A stretch of 64,000 bases of DNA from an uncultured Anaerolineales bacterium (GTDB taxonomy: Bacteria > Chloroflexota > Anaerolineae > B4-G1 > SLSP01), in contig CAZCTC010000036.1 of NCBI GenBank assembly GCA_964501335.1, forward strand, positions 8,224 to 72,223, in the 5' to 3' direction. The position numbers and the translations under genes were made by a program. Of the stretch, positions 32,897 to 36,377 are shown piece by piece. Position 1 is the first letter of the stretch; every line of letters starts with the position of its first letter. The notes under the pieces are model-generated. The model saw nothing but the letters and a program-made list of their open reading frames with translations. It ran no database searches and was not told where the DNA came from.

Positions 32897-34705
32897 ATGG
32901 TCAATCCTGCCTTTGATTTTGAATTCGTTGTCCATGCTACCCACGAAGCCGGTTTTAAAGTTGGTGGTATCGGCGCAGTCCTTGACGGATTGCTCGCCGC
33001 CCCGGCTTACAATGCCGCCGTTCGGCGCACGCTGTTGATCGGCCCCATGGATGTCAACAGCGCCACCGAAATGTCCCGCCTGACCGATCCTCGCAATCGA
33101 TTGACCATTCACTACTCCTCCTGGCACAACATCAATACCCCTCCCGAATCCATAGAAAACGAGAGCGACTGGCAGGTAATCTCATCCAGTTTGCAGGCCA
33201 TTGAGGCCCTCTTTCAGGTACGGCTGCTCTACGGTCGCCGTTTCCTGGGAAATGTAGAACACGAAATCCTGCTGGTCGATGCCCGCCACGCCCGGGCAGA
33301 AGAGACCAATGCCTTTAAATACGAACTCTGGGAACACTATCACATCCGCCCTGAACGGTATGAAGTCCTCGATGAATTCGATTTGACGGTCAAAGCGGCC
33401 CGCCCCGCCTTCGCCGCCTTGACCCTGCTGGCCGGCGAAACCACGGGCGCTCGCTTCATCATCGCGCACGAATGGATGGGAATTCCGCTGGCGCTCACCG
33501 CTCAAATCCAGAGCGGAATGGAATGGCATCTGGTCTTCTATGCCCATGAAATGGCCACCGCCCGCATCCTGGTCGAAGATCACGCCGGCCACGACACCCG
33601 CTTCTACAACGCCCTGCGCCTCGCCCGCCAGAACAAACTCAACCTGGATCAGGTTTTCGGCGACCGCAACGATTTCTTCAAACATGCCCTCATCAAACAG
33701 GCCCCCCGGCTCGATCTGACGCTGGCCGTCGGCGATTGGGTGGTCGAAGAACTACGCTTCCTCGGCGGCGGCTTTGAAACCACGCCGATCGAACTGGCCT
33801 ACAACGGAATCCCCTCAGAACCGGTCACCATAGAAGAACGCCACACCTCTAAAGGACGCCTGCAGCACTATTGCCAGAATCTGCTGGGGTATCGCCCCGA
33901 CTATATCTTCAGCCATGTCACCCGCCTCGTCGTCAGCAAAGGACTCTGGCGCGACCTGCGCGTGCTCGAACATCTCGATCCCCTGCTGGCCGCTGAAGGC
34001 AAAACCGCCGTCCACTATATGCTCTCCACCAGCGCTCCCACCGGCCGGCTGCCCGCCGACGTGATGCGCTGGGAACAGGAATATGGCTGGCCCATCGTCC
34101 ATCGCACCGACAACGGCGATCTGGTCTGGCTGGAAATCCCTATGTACGCCGCCATCGAAGCCTTTAACGCCCATTCCCAGGCCATCAAAATCGTCCTCAT
34201 CAACCAGTATGGCTGGGATCAGGCTCACTGCGGAATGAAAATGCCCCCCGATATGAGCTTCAAAGATCTGCGCCGCGGCGCCGATCTGGAATTCGGTCAA
34301 TCGGTCTATGAACCCTTCGGCATCGCCCAGGTAGAGCCGTTGGGGTTCGGAGCCCTCTGTGTGGTCAGTAACATCTGCGGCTGTGTAGGATTCGCGGAAC
34401 AGGCCGCCCATCAGGCCGGACTGGAAAACTTCCCCAACCTGATCATTGCCGATTACACCACACCGCCGTCCACCATCCCTATCCGTTCTCCCTGGGAAGC
34501 GCTCAAAATCGGGCAGGAAACGCGCGATGCGCTGGAAATCACCAACAGCAGCGCCGTCGCCCGGACAATCTTTGCCGCTCTGCCCCGCACGGAACACCAG
34601 GCCCAACAGTTGCTCGATCAGGGACAGCAGGTCAGCCGGCGCATGAGCTGGGAAGTCGTCGCTCAAGAGTATCTGCTGCCGGCCCTGGCCCGGCTGTGTA
34701 ATTAA
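32897..34705 (+). CDS. GT3-family (eukaryotic-type) glycogen-synthase-like glycosyltransferase
   Basis: RBS AAGGAG. N-terminus FEFVVHATHEAGFKVGGIGAVL...LIGPM matches the GT3 N-terminus (FETATEVANRVGGIYSVL..LIGPL). C-terminal EPFGIAQVEPLGFGALCVVSNICG matches EPWGYTPAEC..GVPSITTNVSG. 602 aa. Confidence 0.6.
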   Translation: MVNPAFDFEFVVHATHEAGFKVGGIGAVLDGLLAAPAYNAAVRRTLLIGPMDVNSATEMSRLTDPRNRLTIHYSSWHNINTPPESIENESDWQVISSSLQAIEALFQVRLLYGRRFLGNVEHEILLVDARHARAEETNAFKYELWEHYHIRPERYEVLDEFDLTVKAARPAFAALTLLAGETTGARFIIAHEWMGIPLALTAQIQSGMEWHLVFYAHEMATARILVEDHAGHDTRFYNALRLARQNKLNLDQVFGDRNDFFKHALIKQAPRLDLTLAVGDWVVEELRFLGGGFETTPIELAYNGIPSEPVTIEERHTSKGRLQHYCQNLLGYRPDYIFSHVTRLVVSKGLWRDLRVLEHLDPLLAAEGKTAVHYMLSTSAPTGRLPADVMRWEQEYGWPIVHRTDNGDLVWLEIPMYAAIEAFNAHSQAIKIVLINQYGWDQAHCGMKMPPDMSFKDLRRGADLEFGQSVYEPFGIAQVEPLGFGALCVVSNICGCVGFAEQAAHQAGLENFPNLIIADYTTPPSTIPIRSPWEALKIGQETRDALEITNSSAVARTIFAALPRTEHQAQQLLDQGQQVSRRMSWEVVAQEYLLPALARLCN

Positions 34706-34722
34706 AAATTCAGGAGCAAATC

Positions 34723-35247
34723 ATGGACAAAGCACCTCGAAGTGGACGTGTCGCGGCCGAATTCTTCTATTCCGGCTTCCGAATTTCCGCCGTCTATGAC
34801 ACTCAAAAACGGCTGCTGGCTGATATTATTTACGACGGCAATGTCTCTTATCTCACCATCGAAGAAGTCTATCTTTCTTCGATCGGTAAACCGGCAGAAA
34901 TTCTGGGGAACTATCCTTCCGCCATGTTTATGAAATCCAAACTCGAATTTTTCCTGACGCTCAACCAGGAAGACGGCCTGCGCCGGGATCAGCTCTATGG
35001 CAATTACAAATTGATCCCGCTGGTCCCTATTTTTGTGACCTTCCCTTTTTACGAACTCACCGGCTTTGTCCGCCATACCGGCAAATTTGACCCGATTTCT
35101 TTTATGACGCTGCAAAGTGAAACCTTTGTAACCATGCTGAACGTCACCGTTCGCTCTGCAATCGATCCCTCGGTCACATTCCAGGGAGGCGCCGCGGTCT
35201 TGAATAAAGCTTACATTGGCGCCATCGGACAAAAAGCAACTAAATAA
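34723..35247 (+). CDS. Hypothetical protein (174 aa)
   Basis: RBS AGGAG. Start is 17 nt after the GT3 stop. No family assigned. Confidence 0.5.
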   Translation: MDKAPRSGRVAAEFFYSGFRISAVYDTQKRLLADIIYDGNVSYLTIEEVYLSSIGKPAEILGNYPSAMFMKSKLEFFLTLNQEDGLRRDQLYGNYKLIPLVPIFVTFPFYELTGFVRHTGKFDPISFMTLQSETFVTMLNVTVRSAIDPSVTFQGGAAVLNKAYIGAIGQKATK

Positions 35248-35273
35248 GCCGGATAGAGTCTCAGGAGGTAAGT

Positions 35274-36377
35274 ATGGCCCGAATTCTAATCATCGACGAC
35301 AATCTCGATATGATCCGTTTGCTGGAAACACTTTTACGCAGTCGCGGCGGACATGAAGTCATTACCAGTAACGACGGCCAGGACGGTGTTGAAAAAGCCT
35401 TCGCCCAACAACCCGATGTGATCATCGCCGATGTGATGATGCCCAAAATGAACGGGTACGAGGTTGTGCGGAAACTCCGCGCCGATGCCCGCACCGCCAA
35501 TGCCGGCATTATCATCCTGACGGCCCGCGGCCAGCCGGTCGATCGTCTGGCTTCCCTCGAAGCCGGCGCCGATGAGTATATGACCAAACCTGCCAGCATC
35601 GATGACCTGTTGGAAAAGGTAACGGCCCTGACCAATCGGGCGCCCACCCCACCCCCCGGCAAAGGGCTGATCATCAGCCTGCTGAGCATGCGGGGCGGAA
35701 CCGGCGTGACCACCCTGGCCGTCAACATGGCCGCCATGTTACGCCGCGGCACCGAAACCGTGCTCTTCGATCTTTCACCGCGCGGCGGCCATTGCGCTCT
35801 CTACCTGGGCCTCCGCCCCGATCGACATTGGGGACTCTTGCTGCAAAAACCCGACCTCAAAACCGAGGATCTGCTGCTGCAACACCCCTCCGGCCTGAAA
35901 TTACTCGCCGCTCCCACGGCCCCGGTCCGCGGCGGCTGGTTCTCGGAAGAACAATTGGATAATACGCTGAACTCGCTGCGCTCCCTGGCCCGCTTTATCA
36001 TCGTCGATATGCCGCCGGTCCTCAATCCCATCGCCCTGAAAGTGCTGGAGGCCTCGCACCGCATCCTGGTCATCGGGGCCGACGATCCACCCGGCCTGCA
36101 ATCCATCCTGGGCACCTATCAGACGCTGCAAGACATGCAGGACAAAATGCTGGTGGTCCTCAATGGAGCCAATGCCGGCCCCCGTCCGCCCATCGAGGCC
36201 GTCGAACGGGCCCTGCATATTTCCATTGCCGGCGATCTGCCCTTTGATCCGGCCCAGGCCAATGCCATGCGGCGCAGCCTGCCGCTGGCCTTTGCCCAAC
36301 CGGAGCCGCCCTTGATTGTGGCCTTGAAAAAAATCGCCGTGATGGCGGTTCAGCCCCGGCCGACCACCAAAGCGTGA
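35274..36377 (+). CDS. Receiver domain fused to a ParA/MinD-like (CpaE/TadZ-type) ATPase with a degenerate Walker A
   Basis: RBS AGGAGG. Receiver ILIIDDN..VIIADVMMPKMNG..K. The P-loop region reads SMRGGTGVTTLAVNMAA in place of the deviant Walker A KGGxGK(T/S), so both Lys are replaced. Confidence 0.75.
   Translation: MARILIIDDNLDMIRLLETLLRSRGGHEVITSNDGQDGVEKAFAQQPDVIIADVMMPKMNGYEVVRKLRADARTANAGIIILTARGQPVDRLASLEAGADEYMTKPASIDDLLEKVTALTNRAPTPPPGKGLIISLLSMRGGTGVTTLAVNMAAMLRRGTETVLFDLSPRGGHCALYLGLRPDRHWGLLLQKPDLKTEDLLLQHPSGLKLLAAPTAPVRGGWFSEEQLDNTLNSLRSLARFIIVDMPPVLNPIALKVLEASHRILVIGADDPPGLQSILGTYQTLQDMQDKMLVVLNGANAGPRPPIEAVERALHISIAGDLPFDPAQANAMRRSLPLAFAQPEPPLIVALKKIAVMAVQPRPTTKA

Follow-up and report, generated by a model that had tools for sequence, protein, structure and literature searches.

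Three genes that follow one another on the forward strand of a Chloroflexota contig are the subject of this analysis. The contig (CAZCTC010000036.1 of assembly GCA_964501335.1) comes from an uncultured Anaerolineales bacterium, and the whole stretch analysed here, referred to as the window, is 64,000 nucleotides (nt) long. The homologs recovered likewise point to an organism of the Chloroflexota, close to Caldilineae and Anaerolineae. The first open reading frame (ORF), at 32897-34705, encodes a 602-residue glycosyltransferase that resembles the family 3 (GT3) glycogen synthases. The second, at 34723-35247, encodes a 174-residue protein predicted to consist of two tandem Sm-like barrels, and the third, at 35274-36377, encodes a 367-residue protein in which a response-regulator receiver domain is joined to a ParA/MinD-type domain (the receiver-ATPase), for which the small gene is the partner gene. 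An earlier interpretation made from the DNA letters alone, which we call the sequence-only reading, had placed three ORFs at these coordinates with gaps of 17 nt and then 26 nt, and both the ORFs and the spacers were confirmed.

The signals around the three ORFs are those of a compact gene cluster on one strand. An AGGAG-type Shine-Dalgarno sequence precedes the start codon of all three genes, and the base composition and a strongly negative GC skew continue unchanged over the gene junctions. A terminator scan of the window found no convincing terminator between the synthase, small-protein and receiver-ATPase genes, with terminator-like hairpins appearing only 3′ of the third gene. There, two long perfect palindromes (36395-36437 and 36480-36517, with 20- and 17-bp stems and no assigned strand) lie in the 145-nt spacer that separates the receiver-ATPase gene from a convergent family 4 (GT4) glycosyltransferase gene at 36523-37590, and from their sequence and position these palindromes are likely to be bidirectional terminators. 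Co-transcription of the three genes in the source genome is thus plausible, because the gaps are short, no terminator intervenes before the end of the third gene, and strong hairpins follow at 36395-36517. Promoter-like sites in the window occurred at the level expected by chance from shuffled sequence, so no promoter is claimed, and an Rfam scan of the window returned no RNA family. The palindromic element TTTGCGCGC-(loop)-GCGCGCAAA is present in four copies in the window (721-746, 36402-36430, 36486-36511 and 54907-54932) against none expected from shuffles, and two of the copies form the hairpins behind the receiver-ATPase gene. Judged by its sequence, it looks like a repetitive extragenic palindromic (REP)-like family of intergenic repeats. 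Every 2-kb bin of the window (1-64000) has a negative GC skew, ranging from -0.03 to -0.26 and mostly about -0.2, with a sign that is independent of gene orientation, and this strand asymmetry is unusually strong and uniform.

Sequence models place the 602-residue protein close to the edge of GT3. The Pfam model Glycogen_syn (PF05693) scores 26.7 bits against a gathering cut-off of 27.0 and covers only residues 20-268 in the N-terminal half, while a precomputed table based on a later version of the Pfam model lists PF05693 for the protein and for a minority of its homologs. The Pfam model Glycos_transf_1 scores 16 bits. For the family 5 (GT5) enzyme GlgA, the NCBIfam model NF001899 reaches 16.4 bits against a cut-off of 459 over a stretch of just 39 residues, and neither TIGR02095 (GlgA) nor the Pfam starch-synthase domain matches the protein. 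A search of the PDB with the single sequence retrieved no relevant solved structure. When a profile built from 22 family sequences was compared with the PDB, the significant matches were exclusively eukaryotic GT3 glycogen synthases (best E value 2.7e-5), and the resulting alignment to human GYS1 spans the HEW and AHE..TAR segments and the E-X7-E motif. We also built an AlphaFold (AF2) model from the 22-sequence alignment, with a mean predicted local distance difference test (pLDDT) score of 88. Foldseek comparison of this model with the PDB returned GT3 enzymes from yeast, human and nematode at ranks 1-39 (E 1e-21 to 1e-17, template modelling (TM) scores 0.61-0.67), with GT5 starch and glycogen synthases starting at rank 40 (E 1e-13 to 1e-11, TM 0.43-0.54).

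The residues expected at a glucan synthase active site are retained across the family. The KxGG motif of glycogen and starch synthases reads K-V-G-G-I-G (K21-G26, encoded at 32957-32974 on the forward strand) and is found in 118 of 120 family members; the 22-sequence alignment shows no variation at G23, G24, I25 and G26 and at least 90% conservation at K21. The E-X7-E motif, a feature of retaining GT-B glucosyltransferases, reads E472-P-F-G-I-A-Q-V-E480 (34310-34336, forward strand), aligns with YEPWGYTPAE of GYS1, and is likewise present in 118 of the 120 members, with both Glu residues invariant among the 22 sequences. Along with these two motifs, H191-E-W, H217 of the AHE..TAR segment, and the R343-x4-K348 pair are invariant or nearly so in the same alignment, and KVGGIG, HEW, AHE..TAR, R-x4-K and E-X7-E are each kept in 116-119 of 120 homologs. 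In Caldilineae and Anaerolineae this large family counts more than 2800 homologs, nearly all of them unnamed or annotated as 'hypothetical'. The 602-residue protein is probably a divergent GT3-like candidate glycogen synthase with a retaining GT-B architecture, either a bacterial member of GT3 or a sister to it, and GT3 is favored over GT5 and GT4 because of the profile and predicted-fold evidence. The sequence-only reading had drawn the same affinity from N- and C-terminal signatures, and the profile searches did not reassign the protein to GT4 or GT5, though the resemblance to eukaryotic GT3 remains remote.

Comparison with characterized enzymes clarifies what is shared and what is not. With the eukaryotic GT3 enzymes, represented by yeast Gsy2p and human GYS1, the modelled protein has in common the GT-B fold with its GT3-specific elaborations (TM 0.61-0.67), a length of about 600 residues, and the KVGG, HEW, AHE..TAR, R-x4-K and E-X7-E motifs, and the genomic link to a branching enzyme described below can be counted as a further feature shared with GT3 systems. 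It differs from them in standing at 15-18% identity, just short of the Pfam GT3 threshold, and, as far as its sequence indicates, in having no obvious Arg cluster for glucose-6-phosphate activation in its C-terminal helices. The ADP-glucose-dependent GT5 GlgA enzymes of E. coli and Agrobacterium resemble it in their overall GT-B glucan-synthase fold and in E-X7-E chemistry, and both GlgA and the present family are often encoded beside glgB; however, GT5 is clearly the weaker structural match (rank 40 and lower), and the NCBIfam GlgA model gives 16 bits where 459 are required. Prokaryotic GT3 enzymes have been reported in Planctomycetes-Verrucomicrobia-Chlamydiae (PVC) bacteria, Bacteroidetes, DPANN and Euryarchaeota, the archaeal ones without enzymatic characterization (PMC11046441). 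The family described here sits in the Caldilineae and Anaerolineae of the Chloroflexota, a phylum absent from the list of prokaryotic GT3 holders in that 2024 review (PMC11046441).

The genes that accompany the synthase in related genomes point to the same chemistry. We assembled 80 ortholog loci (46-70% identity) from contigs representing one genome per species, of which 72 carry at least 1.5 kb of downstream sequence and were treated as informative. In 38 of these 72, a glgB gene with the same orientation as the synthase gene occurs no more than 10 kb downstream, and in 27 of the 38 the two genes are directly adjacent. In the closest ortholog (locus L001, 70% identity), a gene for a GlgX/isoamylase-type debranching enzyme begins 46 nt downstream. 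This genomic context supports a role of the synthase in alpha-glucan metabolism, because of the linkage to glgB and glgX among its orthologs. An alternative is that the enzyme is a GT-B transferase making some other alpha-glucoside or envelope glycan, such as a precursor of the maltose-1-phosphate type or a polysaccharide of the cell wall. The 15-18% identity to GT3 structures and the score under the Pfam threshold would suit such an enzyme, as would the absence of glgB from nearly half of the ortholog loci, the presence of GT4 and GH1 genes near the synthase in the window, and the database names given to a few homologs ('glycosyltransferase involved in cell wall biosynthesis' at the Joint Genome Institute (JGI) for some, 'Glycosyltransferase family 4' in UniRef for one). 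Yet the top structural matches are all glucan synthases, first GT3 and then GT5, the residues that align with the GT3 active site are invariant, and the recurrent same-strand neighbor is a branching enzyme, whose substrate is a linear alpha-1,4-glucan. We consider this alternative unlikely, if still worth keeping in view, and favor a candidate glycogen synthase.

The third gene encodes a protein with two recognizable parts. Residues 1-122 form a receiver domain (Pfam Response_reg, 90 bits), and the protein also matches Pfam AAA_31 and CbiA. Residues 130-367 adopt a ParA/MinD fold, for which the closest solved structures are Thermus Soj (E 1e-10), other ParA/Soj proteins, MinD and FleN. The family comprises more than 1689 proteins. 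In the family alignment D8, D9, D53, T83 and K105 are invariant, and the receiver motifs are found in 119-120 of 120 homologs; the codon of D53, the predicted phospho-acceptor Asp, lies at 35430-35432 on the forward strand within a DVMMP motif present in 119 of the 120. Judged by these aligned residues, the receiver domain is canonical, with the acidic pocket, the phospho-acceptor Asp, and the conserved Thr/Ser and Lys all in place.

The ParA/MinD-type domain, by comparison with its relatives, has lost key residues of the nucleotide-binding site. Its Walker A region reads S-M-R-G-G-T-G-V-T-T (residues 138-147), and the lysine-less core R-G-G-T-G-V-T-T (R140-T147, 35691-35714, forward strand) aligns with KGGVGKTT of Soj, so that Arg replaces the signature Lys and Val replaces the P-loop Lys. 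The deviant Walker A motif with both lysines, KGGxxGK[ST], is accordingly not found here, and neither is the catalytic switch-I Asp (Soj D44 or MinD D40), since Ser168 aligns with Asp44 of Soj. At the signature-Lys position, 100 of 120 family members have Arg and 18 have Lys; at the P-loop Lys position, 86 have Val, 13 Thr, 6 Lys and 15 other residues. The position of Soj D44, located in the 111 members in which the motif was found, is Ser in 101, Ala in 6 and Cys in 4, and is never Asp. Two acidic residues are retained, D245 of Walker B and D166, the first Asp of switch I. With such distributions, the alignments identify the active-site substitutions as properties of the family and not as decay of a single gene. 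Relative to the ParA/Soj and MinD deviant-Walker-A ATPases, the family thus shows fold-level homology and keeps D245 and D166, with both Walker A lysines and the catalytic Asp replaced and an N-terminal receiver added. When the receiver-ATPase alignment was used to scan metagenomes, the matches were mostly generic receiver proteins, with full-length relatives at loci L087-L091 only. Two distant relatives keep the motif SLRGGVGVS.

A lysine-less P-loop of this kind recalls TadZ/CpaE. The TadZ consensus is given as K/RGGXGXS/T in a recent preprint (bioRxiv 10.64898/2026.07.08.737194), and RGGTGVT of the window protein matches this K/RGGxGxS/T pattern. TadZ/CpaE proteins are described as an atypical ATPase domain combined with an atypical receiver, and as still binding ATP in order to dimerize even though the motif deviates (PMC13170226, citing Xu et al., 2012). 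For the TadZ of E. rectale, a lysine of a neighboring helix is said to make up for the missing one (PMC10482377). The window protein has the same layout as E. rectale TadZ and Caulobacter CpaE, a receiver followed by an atypical ParA/MinD domain that lacks the P-loop Lys. Two proposals of the sequence-only reading hold at this point: the RGGTGV motif with both lysines replaced is real, and it is of the TadZ/CpaE kind. The motif has proved, in addition, to be family-wide.

This likeness raises the question of whether the receiver-ATPase is simply the TadZ/CpaE protein of a Tad (type IVc) pilus whose genes lie at some other place in the genome, with the small protein as an accessory pilus factor. 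The shared architecture and the K/RGGxGxS/T motif speak for such an assignment, many relatives are named 'pilus assembly protein CpaE' by JGI, and the CpaE-homolog family TIGR03815 is the best ATPase-type match in NCBIfam. That match, however, reaches 65.6 bits, far under the cut-off of 154.45; the Pfam model TadZ_N does not match the 367-residue protein, and the solved TadZ structure is missing from the PDB sequence matches of the receiver-ATPase. The receiver also differs, being canonical with all five signature residues in the window protein and atypical in TadZ, as described (PMC13170226). No CpaF/TadA, TadB/C or pilin genes are present among the window ORFs scanned, and no tad genes occur within about 8 kb of nine orthologs or near two distant relatives; the neighbors of the receiver-ATPase are tandem Sm-like and zinc-ribbon/LysM proteins instead of a tad locus. 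We hold a plain pilus TadZ to be quite unlikely, and treat the receiver-ATPase as an uncharacterized variant of the TadZ/CpaE type.

The 174-residue protein encoded between the synthase and the receiver-ATPase has no Pfam match. A word-indexed search returned only the protein itself, and its resulting status as an orphan proved to be a sensitivity artefact, overturned by a full HMMER search and pairwise comparisons. The full search gathered 81 representative clusters, almost all of 170-185 residues, and the orthologs located by position share 40-42% identity along their whole length. Pfam DUF6812 (PF20660) matches the second barrel in 13 of 48 aligned members (best E 2.4e-8); this model of 53 positions covers part of one barrel, and the window protein itself falls outside it. 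The sequence-only reading had left the fold of the protein as unknown, a description now superseded, since the structural model shows small, five-stranded, bent beta-barrels of the Sm/LSm-like type. We therefore describe the protein as two predicted tandem Sm-like barrels, representing a conserved, uncharacterized family distantly tied to DUF6812. The two halves have no detectable sequence similarity to each other, and the model would be consistent with an internal duplication. The literature searched contained nothing specific on DUF6812 or on receiver-ParA regulators, and it mentioned neither the GT3-like clade nor the regulator pair.

An Sm-like fold invites comparison with Hfq, and the small protein could be read as an RNA-binding Hfq/LSm-type factor, with the pair acting in post-transcriptional control and not in positioning or at the envelope. 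The Sm fold is, however, a generic small barrel with many non-RNA functions. The structural match in this case is confined to a single barrel of 55-60 residues at 7-16% identity, the model fuses two barrels in one chain where a ring subunit would be expected, and the genes conserved beside it encode a LysM envelope protein and a protein of the ParA/MinD type. A role in RNA binding is for these reasons very unlikely, and we favor the small protein as a likely partner of the receiver-ATPase.

The pairing of the two genes is visible in the gene order of related genomes. In the window and in nine relatives (L081, L083, L167, L168, L169, L170, L171, L172 and L175), the small gene lies directly 5′ of the receiver-ATPase gene, as checked with a hidden Markov model, and the pair is kept even where the member is only 24% identical to the window protein. 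Directly upstream of the pair and on the same strand, seven of the nine relatives carry a gene for a LysM-domain protein of 382-405 residues, in most cases with a zinc-ribbon match. A 149-residue ORF upstream of a distant relative in L087 was considered as a further member of the small-protein family and rejected (hhalign probability 0.9%). On the 3′ side of the pair, a small unnamed gene on the opposite strand and a 3-methyladenine DNA glycosylase gene are found in L081-L084, L167-L170 and L172, together with an unnamed gene of about 438 codons and, in many cases, a gene for a 900-1060-residue SH3_3 protein; the NusB and Asp23 genes come next.

The position of the pair in the window can be compared with its position in L168 and L169, where the order is GroES-GroEL-FeoB-(FeoA-)DtxR-LysM-small-regulator. 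The window retains DtxR-FeoB (41150-44209) and GroEL (50722-52365) nearby, with the regulator pair inverted relative to them, and a block of GT4, 6-pyruvoyl-tetrahydropterin synthase, dehydrogenase, GTP cyclohydrolase II and LPG-synthase-TM genes separates the pair from DtxR-FeoB. The synthase gene occupies the usual position of the LysM gene. At the level of gene order, this pattern shows that a local rearrangement placed the synthase there; the three-gene order appears to be a product of rearrangement and not a conserved module, because residual synteny is preserved and the order is missing in relatives. When the zinc-ribbon/LysM protein was used as a query against the window, the only match was a weak one to its LysM domains, in a small unrelated LysM protein at 59450-59992. 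This 180-residue, membrane-anchored, single-LysM protein follows an M23-peptidase-like protein (58097-59992 for the two, forward strand), is encoded by the only LysM gene of the window, and is not an ortholog of the zinc-ribbon/LysM protein whose gene precedes the pair elsewhere.

The sequence-only reading had joined the three genes into a spatially regulated alpha-glucan synthesis module and had staked this proposal on the gene order being conserved in homologs. Such a module would use the receiver-ATPase as a scaffold which, together with the small protein, localizes or regulates alpha-glucan synthesis, by analogy with BcsQ, a ParA/MinD relative said to localize cellulose synthesis at the pole (PMC11407121). 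The arrangement in the window fits this idea, with one strand, 17- and 26-nt gaps, Shine-Dalgarno sites and hairpins after the third gene only, and several members of the receiver-ATPase family give weak matches to Pfam CBP_BcsQ. Across relatives, however, the arrangement is unique to the source contig: the three-gene order is found in 0 of the 80 synthase loci and in 0 of the nine receiver-ATPase contexts, so it is not conserved in homologs, and the proposed module is not supported. The small-protein gene and the full-length receiver-ATPase gene are absent from all 80 synthase loci, where the matches are to receiver domains only, and the gene behind the closest synthase ortholog (70% identity) is glgX, with no sign of the pair there. 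Each unit has conserved partners of its own: the synthase has glgB and glgX, and the pair has the LysM gene. A functional module of all three genes is, in our view, highly improbable.

We conclude instead, with a probability of about 0.72, that the locus holds two functionally separate units, a GT3-like synthase and an Sm-like/receiver-ATPase pair, which are neighbors only in this lineage. They are held to be separate because each has its own conserved partners and because 0 of 80 synthase loci contain either gene of the pair. Several observations weigh against parts of this conclusion. The 17- and 26-nt packing, with no intervening terminator, means that the genes are probably co-expressed here, and the chance of a lineage-specific functional link is low but non-zero. 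On the side of the synthase, the GT3 Pfam score is just under threshold, identity to solved GT3 enzymes is 15-18%, and the clade is known only from sequence and model; 34 of the 72 informative loci have no glgB inside 10 kb, and glgB and glgX were not found in the 64-kb window. The regulator pair is not universal, since L085 has the regulator without the small gene and with a LysM gene about 400 nt away, and L173 has a very distant homolog of the small protein on its own. The pair, too, is known from sequence and prediction.

Working models can be proposed for both units. Most likely, the synthase would transfer glucose from a nucleoside diphosphate-glucose donor to the non-reducing end of an alpha-1,4-glucan, and in relatives the GlgB encoded next to it would branch the product. 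For the receiver-ATPase, we infer that the ParA-like domain is probably not a normal hydrolysing ParA/MinD switch, because both Walker A lysines and the catalytic Asp are lost, and that it probably acts as a dimerizing scaffold like TadZ/CpaE, whether nucleotide-binding or nucleotide-independent. Phosphorylation of D53 by a kinase is the likely switch, because the receiver is fully canonical, unlike that of TadZ. The Sm-like protein and, in most relatives, the upstream zinc-ribbon/LysM membrane protein are likely to be partners of the receiver-ATPase, and the LysM link would point toward the cell envelope. A run of large signaling proteins is encoded on the forward strand at 13401-25562, comprising a PAS histidine kinase, a 1858-residue hybrid kinase with a receiver, nine PAS domains and a GAF domain, a 1211-residue kinase with PAS and four GAF domains, and a 551-residue OmpR-type regulator with a 270-residue N-terminal extension; it is possible that the kinases of this run serve the receiver-ATPase.

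A more far-reaching proposal is that the zinc-ribbon/LysM protein, the tandem Sm-like protein and the TadZ-like protein with a canonical receiver together form an undescribed, Tad-independent module of filamentous Anaerolineae, one that is controlled by phosphorylation, anchored to peptidoglycan, and devoted to positioning or to the envelope. In this one lineage, the LysM gene of the module would have been replaced by the synthase gene, and glucan synthesis may in this way have become subject to the same transcriptional or spatial control. We offer this as a tentative idea that is possible but doubtful.

Other genes of the window fall outside these two units. Divergent from the synthase gene, a 493-residue protein (31296-32777, reverse strand) matches the shoulder domain of the Major Vault Protein (PF11978, 26.9 bits against a cut-off of 25), has a long coiled-coil-like C-terminus, and has no NCBIfam match; neither this gene nor the downstream GT4 cluster is conserved beside the synthase orthologs at the 80 loci. 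That cluster belongs to a block on the reverse strand (36523-41015) of GT4, 6-pyruvoyl-tetrahydropterin synthase-like, zinc-dehydrogenase-like, GTP cyclohydrolase II and LPG_synthase_TM genes, which may make up a pathway leading to a modified glycolipid or to a product related to pterins. An MprF-like lysyl-phosphatidylglycerol (LPG) synthase is split between two reverse-strand genes that lie 14 kb apart, one for the LPG_synthase_TM half (40020-41015) and one for the LPG_synthase_C half (55088-56071). Upstream of the synthase, a 353-residue protein without a Pfam match (28777-29838, forward strand) contains at least six copies of a Y-R-x-x-D-x-Q-[IL]-H-E-L-[WY]-like motif, which suggests an undescribed beta-propeller repeat, and its ORF overlaps the start of a GH1 beta-glucosidase ORF (29738-31216). 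An SPFH/Band_7 gene (25903-26634, forward strand) is followed after 11 nt by a gene for a 294-residue RVT_1 reverse transcriptase (26646-27530, forward strand), and this pair could be a retron- or defense-type reverse transcriptase unit or the remnant of a group II intron. Near the start of the window, a 273-residue protein (1135-1956, forward strand) exceeds the Pfam threshold of 23.6 bits for the two domains of AAR2 (28.8 and 28.3 bits), a spliceosome assembly factor of eukaryotes, and a WD40 propeller protein is encoded at 5733-6869.

What is new at this locus is a very divergent clade of a known kind of enzyme and an uncharacterized TadZ/CpaE-type variant with a canonical receiver and a new partner. 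Thousands of 'hypothetical proteins' of Caldilineae and Anaerolineae become readable as a very divergent, GT3-like candidate synthase linked to glgB, which would extend the eukaryotic-type glycogen synthases to the Chloroflexota and bears on how GT3 and GT5 are distributed among prokaryotes. The regulator pair, usually a trio with the LysM protein, is widespread and unstudied, and represents a response regulator whose output is a catalytically dead ParA/MinD domain, as predicted from its substitutions. It offers a tractable case of how phosphorylation, and not ATP hydrolysis, could switch a ParA-like scaffold.

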